Below, piece by piece: positions 7,377 through 57,458 of a stretch of 64,000 bases of DNA. The first letter of the stretch is position 1. Each line of letters starts with the position of its first letter. The stretch comes from Parcubacteria group bacterium Gr01-1014_8 (GTDB lineage Bacteria; Patescibacteriota; Minisyncoccia; Phycocordibacterales; UBA2100): the NCBI GenBank assembly GCA_007376385.1, contig VMGC01000003.1, forward strand, positions 64,001 to 128,000, written 5' to 3'. Under the pieces are notes generated by a model that was not told the origin of the DNA, did not search any database, and saw nothing but the letters and a program-made list of their open reading frames with translations. Position numbers and translations under genes: made by a program.

Positions 7377-9317
7377 TTAAACAAGCGGCTGATGCTCGAT
7401 GTCTTCCTTCTTTTTTGGAACAATTCCGTGCGCGATGAGGATCTTTTCGAATTCTTCTCGTTCGATGGTCTCGACTTCAATGAGTTGCTTTGCGATAGCG
7501 TCCAAAACCTTGCGATATTTCTTCATGACGTCTTCTGCCCGCTTGTATGCGCCCTCGACTATCTTTTTCACTTCCGAATCTATCGCGGCTGATACTTCCT
7601 CCGATAACTCTCCGGGTTCGATACCAGCACCAAAAAGTGTCCGGCCAGGCGCAGCTTCGAGCGCGACGGGCCCCATCTTGTCCGACATACCATACTTGGT
7701 GACCATGTCGCGCGCCAGCGCTGAGAGAACCTGCAGGTCATTTGATGCTCCTGTCGTGATGTCGTTGAAGATCATCTTTTCTGCGATGTACCCGCCAAGA
7801 GAAACAGCGATATCATCCAAAAATTCCAGTTTCGATTGCATGCGTCGGTCTTCAAGCGGAAGTTTGAGCGTGTATCCTGCAGCGCGCCCGCGCGAAATGA
7901 TAGAAACTTTGTGTACGGGGTCCGCATACGTCAAGACCGACGCAATGAGCGCATGTCCCGCCTCGTGATACGCCGTTATCTCCTTCTCTTTCTTGTTAAG
8001 CACGTGGCTCCGCCTCTCTGGTCCAAGCATCACCTTCTCTATCGAACGAATGAGGTCGTATTGTGTCACTTCCTTTCTGTCCTCGCGCGCAGCAAGGATT
8101 GCAGCCTCATTCATAAGATTCGCCAAGTCCGCGCCTGAAAACCCCGGGGTTCTCTCTGCAATGACCATAAGATTCGTATCCGGCCCCATCGGTTTCTGCC
8201 TCGCGTGTATCTTGAGGATCGCTTCGCGATCCGACCTGTCCGGCAGATCGATAGTTACCCGCCTGTCGAATCGCCCGGGACGAAGCAGAGCGGGATCAAG
8301 CACGTCCGGACGGTTCGATGCCGCCATGACGATAACTTTTTCATTCGGTTCAAATCCATCCATCTCGACGAGTATTTGGTTCAACGTCTGTTCGCGCTCA
8401 TCATTTCCCCCTCCCACTCCAGAACCACGAACTCGCCCGACAGCGTCTATCTCATCCATGAACACAATGGCCGGTGCGGCTTTTTTCGCGGTTTGAAATA
8501 AGTCACGTACGCGCGAAGCGCCGACACCCACGAACATCTCCACAAATTCAGAACCGGATATTGAAAAGAAAGGAACACCTGCTTCACCCGCAACCGCTCG
8601 TGCTAAGAGCGTCTTTCCTGTTCCAGGCGCGCCCATCAAGAGAACACCCTTGGGGATACGCGCGCCTATCTGAATGAACTTTTTTGGATTCTTCAAAAAG
8701 TCGACTATCTCTGCAAGTTCCGCTTTTGCTTCTTTTGCACCGGCAACATCTGCGAACGTAACTTTTTGAACCGTATCTTCCGGAGAAATAAGACGAGCCA
8801 TCGAGCGACCAAAAGTGAATGCTTGCATGCCGGCACCCCTCACCTGCCTTGAAAGGAACCACATGATGCCAAGAAGAAGCAAAACCGGGATTAAAAGCGG
8901 CGCGAGCGTGAGAAACCAAAAGCGCGCGCCGCCCTGGTCCTGTATCTCTATCTTTATTGCCGCAATCTCCTCCGGTGAAAGTCCGTAACGCGCTAAGGTC
9001 TCGGTAAGCGGCGCCTCTCCTTCCTTCTGCGAAGTTTTTTCACTTTCATCTTTGTATGTTGCCTTGATAGTGTCACCTTCAACGGTGAGAGACACTACTT
9101 TGTCATCGCGAATGTCATTGGCAAGCTGCGATATTGCTATCTCATCCGCCCCGCTCTCAATATATTTGCGAACTGCCGAATAGCCCGCTGAAAGTACGAG
9201 AAAAACTGCGAACGCAACTGCTAGCTGCATCCAAATACCCGGTCCTTCCGACGGAGGAACGGCGGGTTTTTTCCCTTTTTTTCCGTGCAGATCGCCCGGA
9301 GTCATTTCTTCGGACAT
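7377..9317 (-). CDS. ftsH: ATP-dependent zinc metalloprotease FtsH
   Basis: N-terminal transmembrane segment. AAA Walker A (GAPGTGKT) and SRH region. HEAGHA zinc motif. Confidence 0.95.
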
Positions 9318-9424
9318 AGACAGCGCATTATACATAAATAGCTTGTCGCAGCTAGTTTGCGGCGACAAGAAAAGATAAAGAAAATGGTAAAGAAATTACC
9401 TGTAGTTCAGGTTATAGTGTCGTC

Positions 9425-9868
9425 ATGTCGCTGATAGATAACAAGCGCGGGCTCTTCGATTACTCGGTTCTTGAAGAACTCGAGGCTGGTATCGAGTTGT
9501 TTGGCTGCGAAGTGAAATCTCTTAGAAACAAACAAGGCTCCTTGAAAGGCGCTCGCGTCGTTGCGCGCGGCGGCGAAGCATATCTTGTTGGCGCTACCAT
9601 ACCTGCATGGCAAATGGCGAACGCCCCCAAGAGCTATGATCCGGAGCGACCGCGCCGATTGCTCTTAAATCAGAAGGAAATCGCCCATATTGCCTCCGCA
9701 GAGGGGGAAAAGGGATTGACAGCAGTGCCGATTTCAGTGTATAATAGAGGGCAACGATTGAAGCTCGGCATTGCTATCGCGCGCGGGAGGAAAAAAGAAG
9801 ATAAACGTCATACAATACGTGCGCGCGAGGAGGAAAGAAGGATCGAGAGAACGAAAAAGCGGAAATAG
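9425..9868 (+). CDS. smpB: SsrA-binding protein SmpB
   Basis: Full-length SmpB similarity with a basic C-terminal tail. Sits next to the tmRNA. Confidence 0.9.
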   Translation: MSLIDNKRGLFDYSVLEELEAGIELFGCEVKSLRNKQGSLKGARVVARGGEAYLVGATIPAWQMANAPKSYDPERPRRLLLNQKEIAHIASAEGEKGLTAVPISVYNRGQRLKLGIAIARGRKKEDKRHTIRAREEERRIERTKKRK

Positions 9869-10159
9869 TTTGCGGATTTGGATGGACACTGAGGGAGACT
9901 GAAGATGGACGACGAACTGCTGTTTATACTCATCGTTATCGTAGGAATCCTACTCTGTGTGGCATCTCCTTGGTGTATAGAGATATACACCTGGGTTAAG
10001 GGGAAGAGCGAATCTCTTTTCCGGGTCTTGCGACTAAAAGAGTAGCCCGTGCGGACGATCGAGGGCCACCCGGTCGTCTGCCTGTCCAAATTCGGAAACA
10101 GTTCTTTGAAAATTAAACAGCCAGTCCCCACCTCTGAACCTGAATCAGGTTCAGAGGTG

Positions 10160-10547
10160 GGGGGTGACTGGTTTCGACAGGAAATTCAATGTGCTTGTGT
10201 GCAAGACGGAAGTGAGAACCTTCCTAAAAAATCTCAAACTCTAAGTGCAAACAAAACTGCACGGGGGGTTCTTTCGCCGATTCAGGCGAAAGACCTCGGC
10301 CTCGTTTTCGCTTAATCGCCCAAACGACCGTTCGTTCAGCGGGTACTCGATACCGTTGACGCGAGCGTCATAACCATCGAGTCCGGTTTCTATTTCACTC
10401 CGAGTAGAGACTTAAAGAAAGAGAGTTAGCCGACGTATGCTTTCGTTCATCTTCTACATACATCGGCGAATCTTCAAGATGAACTACGTCTTGTAGACGC
10501 GCCTGTGCATCATTTCTTGGACTCGAGTTCAATTCTCGACACCTCCA
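10160..10547 (+). ncRNA. ssrA: tmRNA (SsrA), standard one-piece form
   Basis: 5' end GGGGGTGACTGGTTTCGACAGG matches the tmRNA consensus. 3' tRNA-like end reads GGACTCGAGTTCAATTCTCGACACCTCCA (T-arm plus acceptor). A G3:U wobble is present in the acceptor stem. Inferred tag ORF resumes at GCA (10247) and encodes ANKTARGVLSPIQAKDLGLVFA before a stop. Confidence 0.8.
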
Positions 10548-45707: not shown

Positions 45708-46316
45708 TTAGCCTCGGATCTCAACCAGCGTGCCGGGCCTTCCTGGCACGGCACCTGAGATAACAAGAGTATTGGATCCAGCATCAACCTGCAAAACACG
45801 CAGATTCCTCACGGTTATTCGATCGCCTCCCATGCGGCCGGCCATTCGCATCCCTTTCACCACGCGTCCGCCGGCACGACCGCCGCCTCCGATTGAACCC
45901 GGAGAACGCTCTTTGTTTTTTTGACCGTGCGAGCGAGGGCCTCCCTTAAAACCGTGCCTCTTCACGACACCTTGAAAACCCTTTCCTTTTGATATCGCGG
46001 ACACTTCAACAATATCGCCCGGTGCAAACACTGAGACATTTATTGTCGCGCCCCTTTCCATTGTTTCCGCTCCTTTAAATTCTCGGGCGTATCGGAAATT
46101 TCCGAGATCTTTGAAGTGCCCTTGTACCGCCTTGCTCAGATTCTTCTGTTTCCGGTCGCCGAAGCCAAATTGCACGGCCGCGTAGCCATCCTTTTCAACA
46201 CTTTTAGCCTGAGTCACTGTGAGTGGCCCAGCAGTAATGATGGTCGCAGCAGCAACTGCGCCATCTTCATTGAAGATCTGGGTCATTCGACCCTTAGTTC
46301 CGAGCATGAATTTCAT
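45708..46316 (-). CDS. rplC: 50S ribosomal protein L3
   Basis: Family similarity. First gene of the cluster. Confidence 0.9.
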   Translation of the reverse strand: MKFMLGTKGRMTQIFNEDGAVAAATIITAGPLTVTQAKSVEKDGYAAVQFGFGDRKQKNLSKAVQGHFKDLGNFRYAREFKGAETMERGATINVSVFAPGDIVEVSAISKGKGFQGVVKRHGFKGGPRSHGQKNKERSPGSIGGGGRAGGRVVKGMRMAGRMGGDRITVRNLRVLQVDAGSNTLVISGAVPGRPGTLVEIRG

Positions 46317-47111: not shown

Positions 47112-48134
47112 CTAGAGTTCTTGGAAAATCGGGATAATGTTCACCGTCGCGGTCGGCTTTGGCAGAAATACCCCGCCGCTCGACTTCGTGCAGGAGAGTG
47201 TGTAGGTGGTCTGCGTAGAAATAGCGCTTGAAGTCTGCGTCCCAGACGTGCCTGACCACGCATCGGTTATGTCGGGGTTATCCTCGGTGACTGTGCACGA
47301 TGTTATGCCGGAGCTAATCCAGCTAACCTCTGTGGTCTCGCCTGCTCTGATGAGTGATGGAGATACAGCGATGTCGGCCGCAGATGCGTCTCCTCCGCCA
47401 GAGAGACATGCGCCATTTGCACATCCATATGCGCACGCTTGTTCAAACTGATTCGAGCACGTAGGAGGGTTTACTCTTCTGTAGAGGTCATTGCCTACGC
47501 ACGTGAACTGCGGGCTGCATGCGGCATTAACAGTTACGGTTACATTACATGACCATGACTCCGTTTGTACCAAGGCATCCCCGCTCTGTACCGACGAACG
47601 CGTACCTGTAAGCGTGTAGGTCGTACTTTGTGTCGGTGTGACCGACCACGAACCTGCCCACGCAACACCGCCAGGCGTTGGCGAGAGCGTTCGGGTCCAT
47701 GGGTTAATGGGATCCGTTTCTGAACTCCACGAAAGATTGGATACTTGGCCGGATGCTACTGTTAACGGCGACGCATATATGACACATCCGGAGCTTGGCT
47801 GTATCGGCGTATCGCAATCGCCGCTCTGATGGGGATTTGACGGACATGAGGCGGGAACGATGCGTAACCCCGATCCGCTGTATTCCGTAAAACGAGTTTC
47901 TGAAGAAACTATGCCATCCTGCATTTGCAAAGCCCCGCTGAATTGAAAGACAGCTATCGAGAGCATACCGAACAATATTGCCCAATATGTGCGCGTAGAT
48001 ATGCCGCGCAAAATCTTCTCTGCAGAAAGCAACCGCATAACCCGTTCTGTACATTGTCCTATAGACACACGAGAGAAACAATGCGGTGCCTGTGCATAAT
48101 TGTCCGCATACCTTTTTACAATCTCCTTCCGCAC
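47112..48134 (-). CDS. cell-surface protein with repeated Ig-like (beta-sandwich) modules
   Basis: TM/signal near the N-terminus. Repeated Thr/Ser-rich modules (TYTLTG..., TYTLSC...). Start codon uncertain. Confidence 0.4.
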   Translation of the reverse strand: MRKEIVKRYADNYAQAPHCFSRVSIGQCTERVMRLLSAEKILRGISTRTYWAILFGMLSIAVFQFSGALQMQDGIVSSETRFTEYSGSGLRIVPASCPSNPHQSGDCDTPIQPSSGCVIYASPLTVASGQVSNLSWSSETDPINPWTRTLSPTPGGVAWAGSWSVTPTQSTTYTLTGTRSSVQSGDALVQTESWSCNVTVTVNAACSPQFTCVGNDLYRRVNPPTCSNQFEQACAYGCANGACLSGGGDASAADIAVSPSLIRAGETTEVSWISSGITSCTVTEDNPDITDAWSGTSGTQTSSAISTQTTYTLSCTKSSGGVFLPKPTATVNIIPIFQEL

Positions 48135-48982
48135 ATGGCCCGGGAAACAACGTCTGTTTTGGAGACATCCATAATGGAACCAGTCTGTATACTGCGCATA
48201 TTCTCCCGCAGAGAATCCTGCAATGCGTATACGCCCTCCGGTGCAATACGGGGATCATTTCCAGGATAGGCTGTCAGCCAATCTTTTTCTGTGATGGCCA
48301 TCGCCGCTTTCACTGCATCCCGCGCTTTCTTCAGGGCAGCTTCCTTTTCGCCAAGTTCAAACAGCGCGATCGAATGCGAACTAAGAAGCCAGGGATTTTC
48401 CGGAAAAAGCTGGAGGCCATGTTCCGTCGCCGCACGTGCGTCGCGAGGGCAATTGCTTTTAAGCAGGACCCACGCGTAATCATTTAATCCAGCCCAATTT
48501 GACGGCTCCCGAGACAAGTAGAGTTCGTAATCTCTCGCGGCAGCCTCATAATCAGTCATGAAACCCTCGATAAGGCCTCGCACGTAATAGGAATTCGCCT
48601 GTGCATCGCCGTGCTCGGAGATCTCGATAGTTATGTGAGCCAGCGCGGTTGCAAAATCACTTCTCAAAAAATAGATCCGTGCAAGTTCGTGATGCACGTA
48701 TGGAAAATGGGGCATGATAAAGGCGGCTTTTTTCAGATACGTCTCGGCTTTTTTAATGCTGTATGCATCGTCGCGTGTATTGAGAAAATACGAACCCATT
48801 TCATACAGAAGTTTCGGGTCATTAGGTGCGAGCATTCGTGCAGACTCAAGATGGATGCCCTCCCACAGCGCGTGCGCGAGAGCCGTGCGATAAAAGAAGA
48901 TGAGCCCCGCAACAAACAACACCGACAAGGACGCGGCGACGATCAGCTTTGCCGATCTTGCCTTCCACATGCCGTGCATCAC
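48116..48982 (-). CDS. membrane-anchored TPR-repeat protein
   Basis: N-terminal TM and several TPR-like helical repeats. Confidence 0.5.
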   Translation of the reverse strand: MMHGMWKARSAKLIVAASLSVLFVAGLIFFYRTALAHALWEGIHLESARMLAPNDPKLLYEMGSYFLNTRDDAYSIKKAETYLKKAAFIMPHFPYVHHELARIYFLRSDFATALAHITIEISEHGDAQANSYYVRGLIEGFMTDYEAAARDYELYLSREPSNWAGLNDYAWVLLKSNCPRDARAATEHGLQLFPENPWLLSSHSIALFELGEKEAALKKARDAVKAAMAITEKDWLTAYPGNDPRIAPEGVYALQDSLRENMRSIQTGSIMDVSKTDVVSRAMCGRRL

Positions 48983-50121
48983 TTGCTTATCTCACCGTAT
49001 TTTATGAGAAACTCCTTGAAGTTCGGATTGAGTTCTGAGAGGTCAATGTAGCCTTTGTAGTAGCGCTCCCAATCAGCCTTTGAGCGCGCTCCCCCCTCGC
49101 GCAAAAAAGCAAGATAGTAGCCCTGGTGGACTGCTGGATCCTTCTCGACGAGCGTCATGAGCGCATTCAGATACTTGTTGATCTCGGCTTTTGCGTCCGT
49201 ACCCTGCACATCGTACAGCGCAAGTGCATAGTTGAAATATGTATACGGAAGACGCGACGCGATAAGCGGAATGGGGGCTCCTTTCTCATCCCGCGTGGTC
49301 TCATTCAATTTCACCAATGCATCCAAGGCTATTTTAGCGTCCTCAAGATACTCCGGCTGTACCCTCGCCATCACTCCATAGAGATATGATTTCCAAAAGA
49401 GGAACCGGGGCTCAACCATATACTCGAACGGCCTTCCCTCGACGGTCTTCAATTCTTGGGGAAGCAAGGCATCCGCAGATGCTATGACCTTCGCTATTTC
49501 CCCCGCGTATTCCTTTTTTTGAGCTGGCGTCGCGTTCCAGTCTCCATATAAATTCCGGATCCTGTCCGTATACCACTGACCTATGCGAAATTGAGCCTCC
49601 GTTGTCGGATACAAGGATATGGAATATTCCGCAAGATTGCGTATCGAGGTAGCCGCGTCATCTTGGACAAGGAAACTTTGGAACGGTTCGCCGACAAATA
49701 CTTCATCAAATACGAATGGTTCAAATGCCGCGTTGATATAACCGAGTAATTTGTTCACCTGGAGAGCTTTCTCATAGTTTGTTTTGCTGAGCGTATAGGT
49801 CTCCTTTGTCAGCTGTACCGCTTCAATGCGCTTGCGAGCATCGCCGCTCATGAATTTACCGGTATCAACTACAGAACGCGCAACAAAATTTGGCTCCGAT
49901 GAACCCCGCATGACCAGCTCCGCCTGTGCGACCGCCTCATCAGATCTCCCCTGCGCTGCAAGATGCAAAGCAGTGTCCGTCATTTTCTTTTGTTCTTCTT
50001 CGCTTAAGCCGCCTCGCAATAAAAAAAGGTCCGGGCGAAAGACATACAAAGCCGCCGTCGAAAGAACTGCCGCAACAAGAAGTATAAGAACGATGATCCC
50101 CCGTATGTTTGTTCCAGTCAT
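48979..50121 (-). CDS. membrane-anchored hypothetical protein
   Basis: N-terminal TM followed by an alpha-rich soluble domain. Confidence 0.4.
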   Translation of the reverse strand: MTGTNIRGIIVLILLVAAVLSTAALYVFRPDLFLLRGGLSEEEQKKMTDTALHLAAQGRSDEAVAQAELVMRGSSEPNFVARSVVDTGKFMSGDARKRIEAVQLTKETYTLSKTNYEKALQVNKLLGYINAAFEPFVFDEVFVGEPFQSFLVQDDAATSIRNLAEYSISLYPTTEAQFRIGQWYTDRIRNLYGDWNATPAQKKEYAGEIAKVIASADALLPQELKTVEGRPFEYMVEPRFLFWKSYLYGVMARVQPEYLEDAKIALDALVKLNETTRDEKGAPIPLIASRLPYTYFNYALALYDVQGTDAKAEINKYLNALMTLVEKDPAVHQGYYLAFLREGGARSKADWERYYKGYIDLSELNPNFKEFLIKYGEISK

Positions 50122-50126
50122 AGAGA

Positions 50127-50453
50127 TTATTTTCCCCCGCTGCCTCCGCTTCCTCCGGCACAGCCATCACAACAATCACCTGCGCCAGCGTCACCTGCAT
50201 CACCTGCATCACCTGCGCAGCCTCCACACCCACCGTCGCTGCAACCATCCGACGTGCAACTCGAACAACTCGAACAACTGCCCGGGGCATCGGCGCGCGC
50301 CACATCAGAATTTCCTAAAACTCGCTCGCCGCCTCCCCCTCCAAATACGCGCGGCGCAATGACAGTAAGAAGCACGATGACAGCACCGAGGAACAGTAAC
50401 CCCGCATTCCGGATCGCCTTATATCCTCGCTGGGAGATGCGTACAATAGCCAT
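50127..50453 (-). CDS. candidate RiPP precursor: TM/leader region plus Gly/Ser/Cys-rich core (microcin-B17-like composition)
   Basis: C-terminus GSCSSCSSCTSDGCSDGGCGGCAGDAGDAGDAGAGDCCDGCAGGSGGSGGK. A TGaTATACT extended -10 sits 6 nt upstream of the ATG (leaderless-like). 9-nt tandem repeats occur in the core coding region. Confidence 0.45.
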   Translation of the reverse strand: MAIVRISQRGYKAIRNAGLLFLGAVIVLLTVIAPRVFGGGGGERVLGNSDVARADAPGSCSSCSSCTSDGCSDGGCGGCAGDAGDAGDAGAGDCCDGCAGGSGGSGGK

Positions 50454-50527
50454 AGCGAAAGTATATCAGTACACAGCACAATATCCGCGCCTTATGTGGA
50501 TATGTACTTCCACCCTATCTCGCCCTG

Positions 50528-51721
50528 CTATTTTTGTATCCAATCATTGGTTTGAAAGATCGAAAAATCCAAAGCGCATACATTCGCTGTCTCGATAACC
50601 CGATGCAGAGGCTCGTGCGCAAACGATAGATCGAGCGACCAGAAGATTTCCCGTATGGGCGGCTCGCCCCGGCACAGCGCTTTGAGTTCGAACCAGCGTG
50701 TATACGGGCTACAGCGACAAGGACGATTTTGCCATGCACCTTTTATAACCTTCTCGGTCCCGTCCTCGTACCGTACCGTCGCAAGCGATACGCCGCTCGT
50801 GGCCGGAAAGTAAGTCGCAATGCCGAGATGAGGCCTCGCAAATGTAAAACTTCGGCTATGGAGCGCAAAGATGATCCATGCGTGCATCATCAATAGACCT
50901 AGACAGATGATGGCCATGCGCCATATGTAGGTGCCACTGGGTTTTTTTGCAGGCACGTCGAACCAAAAAAGCGCGGGCAAGATCGGCACGATAAGCAACA
51001 TGTAGTATTGTTCAAAGACAACGCCTGCATACACATGGAACGCTACAAAGACGCTCAGTACGCCTCTGCGATACCGCGCGTCTTTAGAAAGGAGGTACCA
51101 CACGCCGATCCACTGCAGAGCAAACGCTCCATGTACGAACCATAATTCGACGCCTGCAGGAATGAGCGGCATATCCTTCGGCAGGCCATCCAAGATATAC
51201 GCGCGATAAAATTCTGTGACACCGCCAAGTACATACAGAAAGACAACAAGAGCACGCGCTGTCCATTCCTTGCATGCGGCAAATAACAGCACCGCTGACA
51301 GCAGGAGGTGCAGGTATGAGTACGCTTCGCCGGCTTCATATGAGAGAACGAGGAGAAAAAAAGCTTCCCACAACCAAGTCAGAAGAAAGATGCCGTGTGC
51401 CGCGAGCCATCGACCCCTGATCGCCGCAAATAAAGCAACCGTTTGCAGAATGAACAGGAAGCCATACAGCGCCGTCTGCGAATAACCGTATTGTTTTAAA
51501 TTTAGGAAATACCATTCACCGCATTGCTGAAAAAACGGCCAGCATGTATACACGTTGCTTTGGTATGCCTGAACGGTGCCCGCATCATCGCCGACAAACG
51601 TTGCGAAGAGGAACATCTGATACGCGAGCGCAATGAAAAATAAGATGCGCGCGTTTTCGGAAGGCAAAAATTCGCTCAAAGAGAAAAACTTCTGGTAGGA
51701 ATCACGGAGGCGCTCCAACAT
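50528..51721 (-). CDS. polytopic membrane protein (possibly HTTM/SdpB-like)
   Basis: About 8 TM helices with no soluble domain. The family assignment is tentative. Confidence 0.35.
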   Translation of the reverse strand: MLERLRDSYQKFFSLSEFLPSENARILFFIALAYQMFLFATFVGDDAGTVQAYQSNVYTCWPFFQQCGEWYFLNLKQYGYSQTALYGFLFILQTVALFAAIRGRWLAAHGIFLLTWLWEAFFLLVLSYEAGEAYSYLHLLLSAVLLFAACKEWTARALVVFLYVLGGVTEFYRAYILDGLPKDMPLIPAGVELWFVHGAFALQWIGVWYLLSKDARYRRGVLSVFVAFHVYAGVVFEQYYMLLIVPILPALFWFDVPAKKPSGTYIWRMAIICLGLLMMHAWIIFALHSRSFTFARPHLGIATYFPATSGVSLATVRYEDGTEKVIKGAWQNRPCRCSPYTRWFELKALCRGEPPIREIFWSLDLSFAHEPLHRVIETANVCALDFSIFQTNDWIQK

Positions 51722-51788
51722 GCATGAACTATATCATGCAGTATCTTTTGCAGATGAAAAAAAGGATGTACCATTCTGTTGTACATTC

Positions 51789-53429
51789 ATGTCATCACCC
51801 TATGCAGACATATTGCGGAATGCGATAGAAAAACGAGTCTTCGTGAAAGCCAAGAACCCCGGTGATATCGTTTCATTGGATGGCACACATTCGCTGCCCT
51901 GGATATTCGATTTTCGTGCGGCAATGTGTGATTCGGAGCATTTGAATGCATTTGCAGAGCTTTTTTGGGAGCGATCCGAAAATGAATATCCATTTCAGGT
52001 CTGCGGAATGGAAACCGCAGGCATCGCACTCGTTGCCGCTATCTGCATGAAGGGCCACGAACGAAATAAGCCGGTGAATGGCCTCTATGTCAGAAAATCA
52101 AGGAAAAAATACGGGTTGATGAAGGCATTTGAAGGAACCCCGACAAAAGATCCTGTGATATTTGTCGACGACCTTATTAACACGGGCCAGTCGGTGCAAA
52201 AAGTCCTCGCGGTATTGCATGATGAGGGATTGACCCTTCGTTCCGTATTCACCATCCTCGGCGTACGGTCTCTTGATGAGTATGCTTTTCTCGATAAAGC
52301 AGGCATCACGTATAGCATGCTCTTTCTATCCGAAGAATTCGGCGTACCTTTGGTAAAAAGTCAAACGCCGATACGGTACGATGAATTCGATGTGCTGTGG
52401 ACATTCAAAAGCGGGTCGCCAAGCTACCAGCATGTGGTCCCTAAATCCGCCCCGGCTCTTGATGCCTCCCACGTATACTTCGGCTCCGATGACGGAATAC
52501 TGCACGCACTTGACCAGAAAACCGGGGCAGAGCTCTGGAAATATCGTATCGGGATGTTCCCTTTCGGCAAAGGGATATTTTCAACTCCCGCAGTCGCGAA
52601 CAAAACCGTATATTTCGGAGCGTATGATGGAAATATGTACGCACTTGCTTCGGATACCGGAAAACGCCGCTGGGTGTACCGAGACGCGGATTGGATAGGC
52701 TCGTCGCCCGCAGTTGCGCCGGACCTAGGATTGCTCTACATCGGCCTTGAATTTGGGCTCTTCAACAAGAGAGGCGGCATTGCGGCACTTTCCCTGGATA
52801 CAGGAGAAGAAAAATGGGCTATGCGCTCAATGAATGGACTCACGCACTGCTCTCCCCTGTATATGAAGGAGGAGCGGGCAGTCGTTATCGGCAGCAATGA
52901 CGGATCAGTGTATTGTTTTGATGCACATTCCGGAAATGAGCAGTGGACGTACAAGACGAACGGAAGCGTCAAATCATCGTTCGCATATGACGCGAAGCGC
53001 CGGCTCGTCATATTTGGTTCTTTCGACGGCAATGTGTACGCGCTCCGTGCAAAGGACGGCAAGCCTGTCTGGCACTTCGATATCGGCGAAGCCATCTTTT
53101 CGACTCCGTGTCTTCTCGGTGATTATGCATACATGCCGTCTCTGAATAAATACCTGTTTGCGCTCTCGCTGGATTCCGGCGAAGAGAAGTGGCGTTTTCA
53201 AATGAGAGGCAGGATATTTTCCTCGCCCGTGATCGCAGATAATTCTCTTTGGATAGGCTCCAACGACGGCCGGCTTTGCGAACTTGATCCAGCGACTGGG
53301 ACAGTGCGCTCTTTCTTCCAGACAAGCGAACGTATTGTAAACGCAGTCGCCTATAATGCGGCATCGAAAACTTTTTTCGTGCCTACACAGGCAAATGAAC
53401 TCTACAGTATCAAGAGAAAAAACTCATAA
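51789..53429 (+). CDS. fusion of a type-I phosphoribosyltransferase-like domain with a PQQ-type beta-propeller
   Basis: PRPP-binding motif VIFVDDLINTGQSV (OPRTase-like) at the N-terminus. Six to eight PQQ/BamB-like repeats (G.DG.lyAld..tG...W) follow. Confidence 0.6.
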   Translation: MSSPYADILRNAIEKRVFVKAKNPGDIVSLDGTHSLPWIFDFRAAMCDSEHLNAFAELFWERSENEYPFQVCGMETAGIALVAAICMKGHERNKPVNGLYVRKSRKKYGLMKAFEGTPTKDPVIFVDDLINTGQSVQKVLAVLHDEGLTLRSVFTILGVRSLDEYAFLDKAGITYSMLFLSEEFGVPLVKSQTPIRYDEFDVLWTFKSGSPSYQHVVPKSAPALDASHVYFGSDDGILHALDQKTGAELWKYRIGMFPFGKGIFSTPAVANKTVYFGAYDGNMYALASDTGKRRWVYRDADWIGSSPAVAPDLGLLYIGLEFGLFNKRGGIAALSLDTGEEKWAMRSMNGLTHCSPLYMKEERAVVIGSNDGSVYCFDAHSGNEQWTYKTNGSVKSSFAYDAKRRLVIFGSFDGNVYALRAKDGKPVWHFDIGEAIFSTPCLLGDYAYMPSLNKYLFALSLDSGEEKWRFQMRGRIFSSPVIADNSLWIGSNDGRLCELDPATGTVRSFFQTSERIVNAVAYNAASKTFFVPTQANELYSIKRKNS

Positions 53430-53474
53430 AAAAACGGCGTCGCCCTCTATGACACACAGTGTTATCCTACGACC

Positions 53475-54902
53475 ATGCTGCAAGATGTGGTGCCGTTCAA
53501 GGAATTTGCATCCAAAAAATTCCCCGGTATTGTAGGCCGCGCGATACTGCAATTCATAGGTGTTTTGGAAAAAGCACTCGGCATCAGAACAGTGATAGAC
53601 GCTGATGAAGTTCCGTACGGAAAAACAGAGCTCTCCGACCTCTTTTTTATTGCTTCATCTTTGAAGAAAGTCGGGACGCTGACCTCATATTCTCAAAGCA
53701 TTGCGCCGCCGGATGAGCCACGTATCTTCAAATGGCAGGCACGTTACGGAACGGAAAATGCGGGCGGCATGTCTGCGCACTCCGACAGGAATGCCCTCAC
53801 AGCGGCACTCGCAGAATGCGTTGAGCGAAAAATATGGGCCGATAAAACAGATTTTTTTAAGAAACCTTTTACCGCCTCAACCTCGGAAATGAAAGATACT
53901 GCGCATATTTCCCCCGAACGATTCGCCGGCCTTACGGAAAAGCAGCGCACAGAAAAAGATTTTTTGAAGATGCAACCTATCAATACATATCTTTGGATAC
54001 GCGGATACTCTCTCGTTCAAAACAAGCCCATATACATCCCTGCACAGATCGTAAGTAGAGTTCACGGCATTGCGATAAAAAAGAACAAATCCGAGCCGCT
54101 GCTCCGACCGATAATTACAACAGGACTCGCAACGGGACAGACGCGCAAAAATGCGCTCCTGTCCGGGGCACTGGAAGTCATCGAACGCGATGCTTTCATG
54201 GTAACGTGGCTTAACCAGATAACACCCTCCCATATTTCAACGGATGAATTGCTCAAGAGTGAGACGTTAGATGCTCTCCTTTCAAAGTGTAAACGATACC
54301 GGCTTGATGTGGATTTCGTGCGGCTCATGACTGACGCACCAACGTATGTCATCGGTGCAGTCGTTTCTGACGGCGCGAATATGCCACCTATTGCAATCGG
54401 CATGTCCGCGCACCAAGACGCATCGCGTGCCGCCGAAAAAGCACTTTTAGAGGCGCTGCGTGCGCGCGTCAACACGCGAAATCGCTTAGAAAAATTCCGC
54501 GAACGAGCATATAAACCTGTCGAAACTATTTCTCAAGGGGAGCGCTCAATGTATTGGGCTGTTGACGACCGTTCAAAACAACTGTCATTTTTAACTGCTG
54601 GTCCTCTGCAAGCACTGGATGACGAAGCGTGGGACGATGACACCACTGAAGAACATCTGGAGAGGATAATCGAGTGGTGCAGAAAAAAGAAATACGAACT
54701 CGCGGAAATAGACATGACAAACTCTGCTGCAAATACGACTCCGTGGTGCGTAACATTCGTCGTGATACCGGAAATGCAGCCGTTGCATCAGAACGAAGAT
54801 CTGCCTTGTATCGGCGGCGCACGCTTGAAAGACATACCTAAACAATTCAGACACGAACCTCGCGCGGAACCATTCGTCGCAGCACCGCATCCATTCGTAT
54901 AA
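53475..54902 (+). CDS. YcaO-domain protein (RiPP cyclodehydratase/amide-activating enzyme)
   Basis: YcaO signature GMSAH...AECVERK and TTGLATGQTRKNALLSGALEVIERDAF. C-terminal ELAEIDMTN...PWCVTFVVIPEM. Confidence 0.8.
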   Translation: MLQDVVPFKEFASKKFPGIVGRAILQFIGVLEKALGIRTVIDADEVPYGKTELSDLFFIASSLKKVGTLTSYSQSIAPPDEPRIFKWQARYGTENAGGMSAHSDRNALTAALAECVERKIWADKTDFFKKPFTASTSEMKDTAHISPERFAGLTEKQRTEKDFLKMQPINTYLWIRGYSLVQNKPIYIPAQIVSRVHGIAIKKNKSEPLLRPIITTGLATGQTRKNALLSGALEVIERDAFMVTWLNQITPSHISTDELLKSETLDALLSKCKRYRLDVDFVRLMTDAPTYVIGAVVSDGANMPPIAIGMSAHQDASRAAEKALLEALRARVNTRNRLEKFRERAYKPVETISQGERSMYWAVDDRSKQLSFLTAGPLQALDDEAWDDDTTEEHLERIIEWCRKKKYELAEIDMTNSAANTTPWCVTFVVIPEMQPLHQNEDLPCIGGARLKDIPKQFRHEPRAEPFVAAPHPFV

Positions 54903-54904
54903 CT

Positions 54905-55633
54905 ATGTCTCTACTTTCACTTACACGACTGCACACATATTTGCGCAGCAGTCGTATCAGAAATAAGCCGGAAAATCCATCGCCGATAACTGCAACAGCA
55001 GTATCTTCAAAAAAATACCCTCGAATGCCGCAAATCGAGCTACCGAATGCGGATACTTCGACGATAACACTCGCCGAAGCAATGCATTCACGAATATCTC
55101 AACACGCGTTCGAAGAACAGCCGCTATCGATCGCATCATTATCACAGATACTCAAGAACTCGGCGTTCTCAGAAAACGCATCCCATCGTCCCTACCCTTC
55201 TGGCGGCGCCCTATTTCCAATCGAGATATATCTGCTCGTTCGTGATGTTGAGTCGCTTTCTCCTGGTATATATCACTATAGACCCGATGTTCACCGTCTC
55301 GAATTCTTGTGGGTACTTTCCGAAAATCTTGAACTGGACGTTACTTTCGACGCATGGGTAACGAGTGCTCCTGTTCTTATTGTGCTTACTGCACAATGGT
55401 CTCGGTCATGGAATAAATATAATGATTTCGGTCTCGAACTCTCTTTGCTTGAAGCAGGACACATCGGACAAAATATGCTCCTTTCAGCCGTCGCAACAAA
55501 TGCATGCGGATGTCCTTGGGGCGGATTTAATGAAAAAAATCTTGCAGATATTCTGGACCTCGATAATGAACGCGAACAAGTTGTTTACACGATCGCTCTT
55601 GGTCCGAGTATTTCAAAAGCTTCGCCGAATTAA
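54905..55633 (+). CDS. SagB-type (nitroreductase-fold) FMN dehydrogenase
   Basis: RPYPSGGALFPIEIY signature of TOMM B-type dehydrogenases. Its start sits 3 nt after the YcaO stop. Confidence 0.75.
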   Translation: MSLLSLTRLHTYLRSSRIRNKPENPSPITATAVSSKKYPRMPQIELPNADTSTITLAEAMHSRISQHAFEEQPLSIASLSQILKNSAFSENASHRPYPSGGALFPIEIYLLVRDVESLSPGIYHYRPDVHRLEFLWVLSENLELDVTFDAWVTSAPVLIVLTAQWSRSWNKYNDFGLELSLLEAGHIGQNMLLSAVATNACGCPWGGFNEKNLADILDLDNEREQVVYTIALGPSISKASPN

Positions 55634-55730
55634 CGCATGAATCGATCGGGACAGAGACGCTTTTCTCAAATCGAAAGGGCCCAGCGTTAGCCAAGCCCCT
55701 CCGCACTGCGTCTCCAGAGTAGTCCGAGGG

Positions 55731-55931
55731 CTAACGCTTCCAGCCCGCACAATACGACCCGCATCTCTTGCCCTTGTAGCAATTTCTGCAGATCGACATG
55801 CATGAGTTGTAATCGTGCGCCGTGGCACACGCCTGCGTGGTGCATGCAGGCATGACCGGGGTTGACCCCGTTACTCCAAGCAGCAGGGTTAAGGCCCCTG
55901 CCAAGCCCAAGAGAGTTTTCCTCGTAGTCAT
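55731..55931 (-). CDS. small secreted Cys-rich peptide (candidate bacteriocin or second precursor)
   Basis: 66 aa. Signal-peptide-like N-terminus, then PACTTQACATAHDYNSCMSICRNCYKGKRCGSYCAGWKR with 8 Cys. Strong RBS GGAAAGGAG 9 nt before the ATG. Confidence 0.55.
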   Translation of the reverse strand: MTTRKTLLGLAGALTLLLGVTGSTPVMPACTTQACATAHDYNSCMSICRNCYKGKRCGSYCAGWKR

Positions 55932-56180
55932 TTGCTTTCGCTCCTTTCCACTACATTGCCCCCTCGAAATATCCGTAGAAAAATGCGGACAATTCGAGAG
56001 AGCAATTTCAACTCCCCCGAAAGAACCGCGGCAAATTTCTTTGCCAGCCAGCGAGGATTATACCTCAAATAATATGATAAGTCAATCAAGCAATCCGACT
56101 TATCCACAGGGTGAAAAGCAAGAAATGAAGCCATTTTTGTGGTATGCATGCGCCTACGCTTCCCTATAGTTCGCATCAAC

Positions 56181-57458
56181 TCAAACGAGTGTCTCATCAA
56201 CAACGATCTGGCATTTTCCACGCGCTGTCGGCGGAATGTTCGCGACGAGTATTATTTTGACCGCAATAGAATTCCCAACTAACTCGCGAACGTTTGATTC
56301 GATTCTCTGTGTTGCATTGCCATCGAACAGAGCGCCCGGAACTATTCTCAATTCAAGTGCACCCTCGGCCGTTTTTGCGAACTGGTATTGGAACACGAGG
56401 TCCATGAACATATCCAGCGCTGCATCGAACTCCAGATGATGTATATCCCGCCCGCCGAAATTCAAGAACGCTGAATATCTTCCCTCGAACCATATTCTCG
56501 GAGTTTCAAGGCCGCATGTGCACCCCTCTAACGATATGACTCCGTGATCGCCTGTGTCATACCGAATGAACGGCATGTTGTAGTTCGTCAGGTCTGTCAG
56601 AATTACCCTTCCCCACTGCCCCGGGGGAAGTACTCTTCCTTCTTCGTCCACTATTTCCGCAATGATCGATTCGCTGTGCAGGTGCTGTCCATCGTGATAT
56701 GTGCATTCGCATGCCACAGCGGACATCTCTTCGATGCCGTACCGGTCATACACTTCGCTTTGCATTGCGGTTTCCAAAAATCCGCGCAGCGCGGGGGGAA
56801 GCATTTCGCCGAACGACACAATATATTTCGGCCGTATGCGGGGCAGAGAGAGGTCAGAGGACAATTTTTGCGCCAAAATAAACAGGATCGAAGTGTAACT
56901 CTCCAATACTTCCGGCTTGAATGACGCAAGCTTTCGTATCGCGTCTTCAGGATCGGACAAGAACTGTTTGACCGGCATAAAAAAACGGTAGCGCGAGGAG
57001 TTCGAACGTATCTTGATGCGGGCGACGCGAAGTTTTGAGAAGTCGAACATAAAAGCATGTTGCCAGGAAATGAATCTGAAACAGACCGATTCCAGATATC
57101 GCATATCAGTTGAATTGCGCCCGAATAAGAACGTGAACGGCTTCCCGCTCGTGCCCGACGTGTTATACCACCGTGAAAATATCTGCTGGCTGTTGTCGAT
57201 GAGCTCCTCACGCGGACGATCCAAAAAAGTTTCTTTTCGGGTTATCGGAAGCGAGGAGAGACCTTCCAAAGTGCGTATCTTTTCCGGCTCAATACCAGAA
57301 AGAGCATACAACTTTTTATACAAAGGTACGTTCGCCGCCGCATGCATGATGATCATCCGCAATCTTTTCTCCTGCCATCTTTGTATGGCCGAACGGGACC
57401 GACGATGCAAGAGATGAAAACGGAGATATTCGATGCTCTCGCGTATCTCATTGATCAT
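56181..57458 (-). CDS. PaaK/CapK/F390-synthetase-like adenylate-forming enzyme 1
   Basis: YNTSGTSGKPFTF (P-loop-like) and RYDTGD motifs of the phenylacetate-CoA ligase family. Confidence 0.7.
   Translation of the reverse strand: MINEIRESIEYLRFHLLHRRSRSAIQRWQEKRLRMIIMHAAANVPLYKKLYALSGIEPEKIRTLEGLSSLPITRKETFLDRPREELIDNSQQIFSRWYNTSGTSGKPFTFLFGRNSTDMRYLESVCFRFISWQHAFMFDFSKLRVARIKIRSNSSRYRFFMPVKQFLSDPEDAIRKLASFKPEVLESYTSILFILAQKLSSDLSLPRIRPKYIVSFGEMLPPALRGFLETAMQSEVYDRYGIEEMSAVACECTYHDGQHLHSESIIAEIVDEEGRVLPPGQWGRVILTDLTNYNMPFIRYDTGDHGVISLEGCTCGLETPRIWFEGRYSAFLNFGGRDIHHLEFDAALDMFMDLVFQYQFAKTAEGALELRIVPGALFDGNATQRIESNVRELVGNSIAVKIILVANIPPTARGKCQIVVDETLV

Follow-up and report, generated by a model that had tools for sequence, protein, structure and literature searches.

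Linear azol(in)e-containing peptide (LAP) clusters with a YcaO gene and a nitroreductase gene are widespread in the candidate phyla radiation (CPR), where 110 clusters have been counted, 51 of them in Parcubacteria genomes, and the genes named for them encode YcaO, nitroreductase and peptidase (PMC7298704). In the passages of that article on CPR LAP clusters, a protein combining a phosphoribosyltransferase (PRT) domain with a beta-propeller goes unmentioned. These clusters have so far been counted by genome mining, and their partners and products are undescribed. Here, we describe a locus of this kind from a Parcubacteria metagenome-assembled genome, Parcubacteria group bacterium Gr01-1014_8, in which a PRT-propeller fusion gene lies directly upstream of YcaO. 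The stretch analysed, hereafter called the window, comprises 64,000 nucleotides of contig VMGC01000003.1 (GCA_007376385.1, positions 64,001 to 128,000 of the forward strand), and coordinates are counted from its first letter. The fusion belongs to a large, conserved and uncharacterised family. In Parcubacteria, LAP clusters form part of a wider conserved system whose centre is a membrane-anchored Gly/Asp/Ser/Cys-rich peptide, and the PRT-propeller, with its near-invariant catalytic site for phosphoribosyl pyrophosphate (PRPP), is a frequent extra enzyme of that system. On present evidence, the locus is a cluster resembling those for ribosomally synthesized and post-translationally modified peptides (RiPPs), of the known LAP/TOMM (thiazole/oxazole-modified microcin) kind, with an unprecedented accessory enzyme. 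The fusion and its parts are as follows.

51789-53429 (+): PRT-propeller fusion gene, 546 aa; continuous open reading frame (ORF), identity to an NCBI protein, independent gene call.
51789-52388 (+): type I PRT domain resembling orotate phosphoribosyltransferase (OPRTase), aa ~1-200; pyrE model, PDB matches, residue conservation.
52092-52136 (+): mobile catalytic loop RKSRKKYGLMKAFEG, R102-G116; alignment to OPRTase loops of human, M. tuberculosis and A. pernix.
52155-52196 (+): PRPP-binding loop VIFVDDLINTGQSV, V123-V136; residue counts and alignment.
52401-53426 (+): 8-bladed BamB/PQQ-type beta-propeller, aa ~205-546; Pfam, Foldseek, DSSP of the model.

The ORF runs from 51720 to 53429 on the plus strand with neither a stop codon nor a frameshift inside, and the family alignment, the NCBI record and the gene call of an independent assembly agree on the ATG at 51789 as the start of the 546-aa product. 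The NCBI protein of the same organism (P0001, 546 aa, 100% identity) is recorded under the name "quinonprotein alcohol dehydrogenase". A split-gene or frameshift artefact is excluded by the continuous ORF, the full-length homologs and the independent gene call. An initial sequence-only reading had proposed that an OPRTase-like PRT domain and a PQQ propeller share one protein with a canonical PRPP-binding loop; both domains are indeed detected in the single ORF and the loop is present, the propeller measuring ~340 aa and not ~380 aa as first estimated. The same reading knew of no characterised protein with this architecture, and none emerged here: no solved chain with both domains is among the Foldseek matches listed for the fusion model, no dedicated family was matched in Pfam or NCBIfam scans, and the literature searches returned none. 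It had also called the fusion unusual, whereas the fusion is no single case but belongs to a large conserved family. An AlphaFold2 (AF2) model built on 48 family members is of high quality (pLDDT 93.3, pTM 0.90). By reading, the sequence lacks a hydrophobic N-terminal segment, and the protein is therefore presumably cytoplasmic, in the compartment where PRPP is available.

The N-terminal domain scores 56.1 bits (E=3.6e-15) on the NCBIfam pyrE model TIGR00336, under the cutoff of 106.8, and far under the cutoffs of the remaining pyrE models; no Pfam match to the N-terminal ~200 aa was obtained at the threshold used. Its top PDB sequence matches are all OPRTases (A. pernix 2yzk, 9e-10; human 2wns, 6e-8), a profile search of the PDB gave 2wns and C. 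diphtheriae 2p1z at 1.2e-10, and M. tuberculosis OPRTase 5hkf is also among the best matches. PurR (1.7e-4, profile search), HGPRT and APRT are much weaker matches than the OPRTases. The catalytic loop is strikingly OPRTase-like, RKSRKKYGLMKAFEG in the fusion versus VRKSAKAHGMQRLIEG in M. tuberculosis OPRTase, and its RKSRKKYG...EG residues line up with their counterparts in the OPRTases of human, M. tuberculosis and A. pernix.

Residue conservation was counted in 147 divergent representatives, 31-56% identical to the query within the PRT domain. The PRPP-binding loop keeps D127 (147/147), D128 (146/147) and G133 (130/147), and the catalytic loop keeps R102 (147/147), K103 (139/147), R105 (136/147), K106 (141/147), E115 (144/147) and G116 (146/147); the mobile-loop Arg and Lys residues of E. 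coli OPRTase are R99, K100 and K103. E75, the Glu of the pyrophosphate (PPi) loop, is retained in 146 of the 147 representatives. A degenerate PRT site is excluded by these counts. The orotate contacts of OPRTase, K26, T128 and R156 (E. coli/Salmonella numbering, mapped by sequence alignment and not by structural superposition), fare differently. N131, an Asn in 132/147, occupies the place of the Thr equivalent to T128, R160, the equivalent of R156, is kept in just 74/147, and the K26/LKSG segment is unconserved in the family consensus. One part of the orotate site is kept, an aromatic-x-F-D-F-R segment in which W38, D41 and R43 are conserved. Since the PRPP and catalytic positions are near-invariant and the orotate-contact positions divergent, we conclude that the family appears to have preserved PRPP binding and probably phosphoribosyl transfer, and that orotate is an unlikely acceptor.

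The C-terminal domain matches the Pfam families Beta-prop_ACSF4 (PF13570, 1.6e-58, over the cutoff) and PQQ_2 (PF13360, 4.8e-46). The top Foldseek matches of the fusion model are the designed 8-bladed propeller Cake8 (TM-score 0.93 on the target) and BamB, with E-values of 1e-25 to 1e-28 against BamB structures, and the DSSP string of the AF2 model fits eight four-stranded blades. The BamB model TIGR03300 does not reach its cutoff (216.6 vs 285.2), and the N-terminus is occupied by the PRT domain, with no signal or lipobox sequence. The PQQ-dependent alcohol dehydrogenase model TIGR03075 scores 76.7 vs a cutoff of 480 and matches short stretches only, and the Pfam PQQ match spans 55 residues. 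The "quinoprotein alcohol dehydrogenase" label was rejected: propeller repeats alone support it, and there is no sign of PQQ binding.

More than 120 full-length homologs share 48-58% identity with the fusion, and at least 371 metagenome stretches encode a relative. When the PRT domain alone was scanned against 1.84 billion representative proteins (50%-identity clusters), 1364 matches were obtained at E<=1e-3 and 345 at E<=1e-10; among the best 150, most are 520-590 aa long with an N-terminal PRT, which is the same fusion. A single-protein scan of genome contigs gave one unrelated Planctomycetota propeller and nothing else. For neighbourhood analysis, 80 of the 371 metagenome loci were kept (numbered with the prefix L), each with a match to the fusion over its full or nearly full length; their ORFs were called, clustered and searched with hidden Markov models built from the same loci. 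Dereplication at 90% identity yielded 68 groups, of which 20 have at least 5 kb on each side and are referred to as well-flanked. In the window, the fusion is accompanied by the following genes.

50127-50453 (-): candidate precursor peptide, 108 aa, with a basic N-terminus, a transmembrane (TM) helix, an ARADAP motif and a Cys/Ser/Gly/Asp-rich tail.
53475-54902 (+): YcaO cyclodehydratase, SagD-type, 475 aa, with a conserved ~100-aa N-terminal extension; Pfam, motifs, AF2.
54905-55633 (+): SagB-type FMN dehydrogenase of the nitroreductase family; TIGR03605, Pfam Nitroreductase.

The candidate precursor, MAIVRISQRGYKAIRNAGLLFLGAVIVLLTVIAPRVFGGGGGERVLGNSDVARADAPGSCSSCSSCTSDGCSDGGCGGCAGDAGDAGDAGAGDCCDGCAGGSGGSGGK, is encoded between the gene for a TM-anchored protein, p380, and the enzyme genes, is called as a gene in the independent assembly too, and has a 51-aa tail with 9 Cys and 10 Ser/Thr. 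Members of its family share a layout of basic N-terminus, one TM-like helix, ~20-30 residues, a junction, and a Gly/Asp/Ser/Cys-rich tail. The junction is well conserved, with A at -3 in 34/38 sequences, A at -1 in 37/38, D at 0 in 35/38, A, V or I at +1 and P at +2 in 32/38. By reading, the A-x-A|D junction is like a signal-peptidase I site, yet lies unusually far (20-30 residues) past the hydrophobic segment. Among 29 loci informative for the peptide, with at least 3 kb on both flanks, the family is present in 23, and in the YcaO-less loci L045 and L049 the peptide gene stands directly downstream of the fusion. The peptide is thus a steadier partner of the fusion than YcaO. The tails of the family recall microcin B17-like cores and also Gly/Asp-rich calcium-binding repeats, and the L067 tail is ~70% Asp.

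Tail composition differs with the enzymes encoded nearby. The fraction of Cys, Ser and Thr is 0.30 in loci with YcaO/SagB (n=19) vs 0.15 in those without (n=10; Mann-Whitney p=5e-4, in a test that ignores phylogenetic relatedness and with part of the YcaO-less loci short-flanked), and under the same limits that of Asp and Glu is 0.15 vs 0.28. This pattern fits YcaO and SagB as a module that is optional and forms azoles on peptides of this one family.

The YcaO protein matches Pfam YcaO (3e-44) and scores 186.6 bits on TIGR03604, under the 219 cutoff; it carries the motifs ECVER and EVIERD and ends in APHPFV. The top fold matches of its AF2 model (pLDDT 93.9) are LynD, MjYcaO and McbD, at TMq ~0.66 and with about a third of the model unaligned, a part taken to be mainly the N-terminal extension. 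In the model, residues 1-100 (53475-53780) form a beta-alpha-alpha-beta-alpha-beta arrangement of pLDDT 75-90 that, from the TMq value, lies outside the LynD/MjYcaO/McbD coverage, and the extension could be a peptide-binding domain of YcaO's own. The fold-match list of YcaO holds no protein of the type of PqqD or of the RiPP recognition element (RRE), only very weak matches resembling double-stranded RNA-binding domains (E~0.3-0.5). E1-like, ThiF-like and RRE families have no Pfam or NCBIfam match in the cluster proteins scanned, no profile-profile RRE search having been made. SagB scores 123.7 bits on TIGR03605, over the 78.4 cutoff (Pfam Nitroreductase 5.4e-17), and starts 2 bp past the YcaO stop codon, while 45 bp separate the end of the fusion (53429) from the co-oriented YcaO start (53475), as the sequence-only reading had stated. 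Promoter and terminator scans of 50000-56300 gave sites no more numerous than in shuffled sequence, and we infer co-transcription of fusion, YcaO and SagB from gene spacing only.

That reading had also linked the fusion to YcaO, and co-occurrence bears this out as a frequent association that is obligatory in neither direction. An exact-sequence look-up of three homologs on long contigs found the fusion with YcaO and a nitroreductase in all three, in two gene orders, with the fusion first or last. YcaO lies within 10 kb in 13/20 well-flanked loci and SagB in 11/20; p380 occurs in 14/20, a TM-anchored tetratricopeptide repeat (TPR) protein in 16/20 and CapK/PaaK-like ligases in 7/20. At least four layouts were observed, namely fusion-YcaO-SagB, YcaO-SagB-fusion, YcaO-SagB-membrane protein-fusion (L014, L016, L025, L041 and L042), and an opposite-strand SagB-YcaO pair that converges with the fusion. 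Proximity that persists through rearrangement argues for a functional link between YcaO and the fusion. Conversely, two of three related YcaO loci checked, L088 and L089, carry YcaO, SagB and a Cys-rich peptide with no fusion within 7 kb, indicating that YcaO does not need the fusion in cis. An obligatory partnership is thus excluded, with 7 of the 20 well-flanked loci devoid of YcaO and two of the three YcaO loci devoid of the fusion. The locus of a divergent member, L092, again shows the Parcubacterial block, here with two YcaO/nitroreductase pairs.

A minority of PRT-domain relatives carry extra domains, joined as follows.

P0165: Stf0 sulfotransferase, PRT and propeller.
P0174, P0265 and P0197: Asp/Asn beta-hydroxylase at either end of the PRT-propeller.
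P0234: PRT and Asp/Asn hydroxylase, with no propeller match.
P0137: formyltransferase, PRT and propeller.
P0242: radical SAM and PRT.
P0182, P0231 and P0263: PRT, propeller and HlyC-type acyltransferase.
P0257, 1425 aa: C39 peptidase, ABC transporter, PRT, propeller and HlyC.

Several of the fusion-variant clusters hold multiple members of the same length, indicating that the variants are not assembly artefacts. P0257 adjoins an HlyD-like gene. The P0182 locus encodes two stand-alone Asp/Asn hydroxylases and PmbA/TldD, and L086, with an HlyC-fused proteobacterial member at 8001-10238, carries two Asp/Asn hydroxylases, PmbA/TldD and several alpha/beta-hydrolases; no obvious matching small peptide was found there by eye. 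The contexts of P0257 and P0182 hold diderm-type genes (OmpA and TctC; YhdP), showing that the PRT-propeller module is not confined to CPR. Upstream of a divergent ~545-aa member, a radical SAM gene ends 3 bp away, and near that member a second radical SAM gene overlaps the gene of a 541-aa protein assigned from its PQQ propeller. The fused or adjacent partners of the module are all peptide- or protein-directed. The Asp hydroxylase partners stand out beside the Asp-rich tails.

The sequence-only reading had suggested that the propeller presents a peptide or protein substrate to the PRT domain. The peptide version of this idea is supported indirectly, by the conserved small-peptide gene beside the fusion and by the joining of the module to peptide-modifying and export domains.

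A second type of locus around the fusion lacks YcaO. These CapK-type loci hold two or three CapK-like ligases, S-adenosylmethionine-dependent methyltransferases, a DegT/EryC1 aminotransferase, a pyridoxal phosphate-dependent decarboxylase, an NMT1/THI5-like protein, a C39-like peptidase and the peptide. Full-length PurD homologs (446-450 bits on the purD equivalog model, cutoff 288) are encoded in six of them (L028, L032, L036, L038, L047 and L048), one or two genes from the fusion and in three arrangements; examples are given below.

L028:7670-8956 (+): PurD-type gene.
L038:13014-14297 (-): PurD-type gene.
L047:8640-9914 (-): PurD-type gene.

PurD ligates the carboxylate of glycine to phosphoribosylamine, the product of a PRPP-dependent amination, and the host bacteria are generally thought to lack de novo purine synthesis. 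No further purine-biosynthesis genes are present in the flanks examined of the PurD loci. The substrate of PurD hints, as a lead only, that the fusion yields an N-linked phosphoribosyl compound on which carboxylate-amine ligases act together with it. The PurD loci are few and probably related.

The remaining genes of the cluster in the window, and those that border it, are listed here.

45708-46316 (-): rplC.
47112-48134 (-): p340, conserved, same operon direction; no Pfam match, family in 23 loci.
48116-48982 (-): TM-anchored TPR protein, 288 aa; Pfam TPR_19 1.7e-7.
48979-50121 (-): p380, TM-anchored, just downstream of the peptide gene; family in 40 loci.
50528-51721 (-): polytopic membrane protein of 397 aa, encoded divergently to the fusion; no Pfam/NCBIfam match, family in 18 loci.
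56181-58822 (-): two tandem CapK/PaaK-like adenylate-forming ligases, 425 and 455 aa; NCBIfam.
58679-60121 (+): p480, 480 aa by ORF, 421 aa in the independent assembly.
60031-62820 (+): p929, 929 aa by ORF, 899 aa in the independent assembly.
62868-63263 (-): rpsJ.

The L089 homolog of p380 shows faint to weak TPR matches. The CapK-like pair matches the NCBIfam DVU_1553-family AMP ligase at 4.3e-43 and 3.2e-28, both under the cutoff. p480 and p929 form one family with no Pfam match, which occurs near the fusion in 13 loci and as three tandem copies in L004. Genes for rhodanese-like and DsbA/thioredoxin-like proteins recur in the peptide/p380/TPR operon, often adjoining the fusion (L054:9402-9893 (-), L012:623-1330 (-), L090 and L092), which hints at sulfur transfer or disulfide chemistry on Cys-containing tails. 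Genes for HTTM (vitamin K-dependent gamma-carboxylase-like), DCC1-like and Asp/Arg-hydroxylase proteins stand beside YcaO-SagB-fusion clusters in L004/L005 (1703-4112), and an arylsulfotransferase gene is found in L088 (6510-6839); these are enzymes typical of the modification of acidic, calcium-binding peptides.

The S10 (rpsJ) and L3 (rplC) genes normally adjoin at the start of the S10 operon. Here, the ~16.5-kb cluster (peptide, p380/TPR/p340, fusion, YcaO, SagB, CapK ligases and p480/p929) lies between them. Among dereplicated loci, six are flanked on the same strand by both rpsJ and rplC, and 14 by at least one of the two. This location between ribosomal protein genes suggests a core cellular role rather than that of an occasional antibiotic, the cluster being an old, stable, possibly highly expressed core locus and not a mobile antibiotic cluster.

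From the anatomy and conservation of the fusion and from its gene-neighbourhood and domain-fusion associations, all of which are observed, we infer propeller-peptide binding, the phosphoribosyl transfer itself and the identity of the acceptor. Our proposal, to which we give a little less than an even chance, is that, in a modular RiPP-like system conserved among Parcubacteria/Paceibacteria, the fusion acts as a cytoplasmic enzyme that tailors peptides with the help of PRPP. Its 8-bladed propeller would dock the membrane-anchored precursor encoded next door, perhaps through the A-x-A-D-x-P junction, and the OPRTase-derived domain would bind PRPP and transfer 5-phosphoribose to a non-orotate nucleophile associated with the peptide. 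The acceptor might be a group of the peptide, or an amine subsequently coupled to peptide carboxylates by ligases (CapK-like, or PurD in some loci). YcaO and SagB, as a separate and optional module, would convert Cys, Ser and Thr of the same tails into azol(in)es, and ligases, methyltransferases and rhodanese/DsbA-like proteins may also decorate the same tail. The product would then be exported or inserted, and possibly cleaved at A-x-A|D. The PRT-propeller is best seen as a conserved, modular and probably catalytic unit for tailoring, linked to a family of peptides; YcaO is often its neighbour but is separable from it.

Several observations weigh against this proposal. Many of the loci are phylogenetically related and share the rpsJ-rplC site, so that part of the co-occurrence may be inherited synteny, and a recognisable peptide is missing in 6 of the 29 informative loci. 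The topology of the precursor, a basic N-terminus followed by a TM helix, predicts an exported tail, on which a cytoplasmic enzyme would have to act before or during export. The PRPP site is also conserved in non-catalytic PRT-like regulators, of which PurR is a PDB match (1.7e-4), and literature searches found no precedent for PRPP-dependent modification of a peptide.

A stronger form of the proposal holds that the PRT-propeller class carries out a new post-translational chemistry, the PRPP-dependent phosphoribosylation of ribosomal peptides, which we regard as possible, though doubtful. By a direct route, phosphoribose would be placed onto Ser/Thr/Cys, a carboxylate or an amine. By an indirect route, a phosphoribosylamine-type intermediate would be joined to the Asp/Gly-rich tail by PurD- or CapK-like ligases, giving GAR-like (glycinamide ribonucleotide) or N-ribosyl-Asn-like linkages. 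The propeller would then be a leader-binding domain unrelated to the RRE, and the PRT-propeller a widespread unit that may combine with YcaO, radical SAM, hydroxylase, acyltransferase and exporter in Patescibacteria and diderms. An analogy with dihydroorotase, dihydroorotate dehydrogenase (DHODH) and OPRTase, in which YcaO cyclodehydration and SagB dehydrogenation would be followed by ribosylation of a peptide-borne orotate-like ring by the PRT, was not adopted because a carbamoyltransferase is lacking and YcaO/SagB are often missing where the fusion occurs.

Alternatively, the fusion could be a non-catalytic scaffold, like the RRE or the E1-like 'C protein', that hands the peptide to a tailoring enzyme while PRPP or a nucleotide serves as a structural or regulatory ligand. 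Such a role would suit a cluster in which no E1-like, ThiF-like or RRE match was found among the proteins scanned and whose YcaO finds its fold matches without a PqqD/RRE-type protein, about a third of its model staying unaligned. Moreover, one constant module combined with many catalytic domains is a distribution typical of recognition domains, and PRPP-sensing, non-catalytic PRT-like domains exist, PurR being among the PDB matches. Yet the catalytic loop is near-invariant (R102 147/147, K103 139/147, K106 141/147), beyond the apparent need of ligand sensing. In L088 and L089, YcaO/SagB and a Cys-rich peptide have no fusion gene within 7 kb, and in L054, L057 and L081 the fusion occurs with no recognisable tailoring enzyme to serve. 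We therefore judge a scaffold unlikely, roughly one chance among four.

Less probable still is a small-molecule PRT that would make a phosphoribosylated metabolite, such as phosphoribosylamine or an unusual nucleotide or cofactor, for an envelope or secondary-metabolite pathway, the propeller providing protein contacts and the link to the peptide being indirect. To our knowledge, characterised type I PRTs all act on small molecules; the gene set of the CapK-type loci (PurD, DegT/EryC1, decarboxylase, NMT1/THI5-like, methyltransferases, ligases) resembles small-molecule or sugar-nucleotide chemistry, and the substrate of PurD is the product of PRPP-dependent amination. However, PurD occurs in a handful of loci only (six family members), and most loci lack small-molecule genes and hold only the peptide, TM-anchored proteins and YcaO/SagB. 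The HlyC, Asp/Asn hydroxylase, C39-ABC exporter and radical SAM partners are likewise peptide- or protein-directed. Finally, a housekeeping PyrE that happens to carry a propeller, adjacent to YcaO by inherited synteny in a conserved region beside the ribosomal protein operon, is very improbable: its closest characterised relatives are all OPRTases, with an OPRTase-like catalytic loop and a retained aromatic-x-F-D-F-R orotate-site segment, and the cluster sits in a housekeeping chromosomal region, but the fusion reaches just 56 vs 106.8 bits on the pyrE equivalog model, Asn replaces the T128 equivalent in 132/147, the R156 equivalent is half conserved and the K26 region unconserved, no pyrimidine-pathway gene is among the recurrent neighbour families annotated, YcaO/SagB proximity is kept through rearrangements, opposite-strand layouts included, and a PyrE would have no reason to be joined to domains such as HlyC, hydroxylase, radical SAM and ABC exporter.

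If the proposed peptide-directed tailoring enzyme does modify the peptide, both the post-translational modification and the type of peptide-recognition domain would be new, and several hundred sequence clusters now mislabelled 'BamB' or 'quinoprotein alcohol dehydrogenase' would be explained. Full-text literature searches that combined YcaO, PRT, propeller, RiPP, PRPP and Patescibacteria in different ways returned nothing relevant, and no RiPP pathway described with a phosphoribosyltransferase was found in them.

Compared with known systems, the locus resembles the LAP/TOMM synthetases McbBCD and SagBCD in that a SagD-type YcaO, SagB and a Gly/Ser/Cys-rich precursor adjoin. It differs from them in that the scans of its proteins gave neither an E1-like/ThiF 'C' protein nor a recognisable RRE, in that its precursor combines a TM helix with an A-x-A-D-x-P junction, and in the presence of the PRT-propeller, which is found without YcaO and vice versa. 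With OPRTase (PyrE), the fusion shares the fold family by sequence, a PRPP loop of the form hydrophobic-DD-xx-[ST]G, a Glu in the PPi loop and a mobile catalytic loop of the form R-K-x-x-K-x-[YH]-G...E-G. By contrast with PyrE, it scores under the pyrE cutoff, has Asn in place of T128, a half-conserved R156 and a lost K26 region, and carries a ~340-aa propeller in a context of peptide modification and not of pyrimidine operons. PRT-like regulators (B. subtilis PurR, PyrR and archaeal OPRT-like proteins) likewise have a conserved PRPP site outside canonical nucleotide synthesis, whereas the fusion has no DNA- or RNA-binding domain and a catalytic loop much nearer to that of active OPRTases. The propeller is akin to BamB/PQQ-like propellers, including ACSF4/AASDH, in its eight blades and PQQ-type repeats (Foldseek TM-scores 0.74-0.93 on targets), and ACSF4, as its Pfam family is described, is an earlier case of a PQQ-type propeller that is linked to a catalytic domain. 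Unlike BamB, the fusion has no lipoprotein signal, and its Parcubacteria host belongs to the Patescibacteria, which have no outer membrane; the fusion is therefore not BamB. Lastly, the PRT-propeller is like PqqD-like RREs in being fused or adjacent to unrelated tailoring enzymes (radical SAM, YcaO, hydroxylase, acyltransferase and exporter), but it has another fold, is ~545 aa and not ~90 aa long, and keeps an apparently functional catalytic site.

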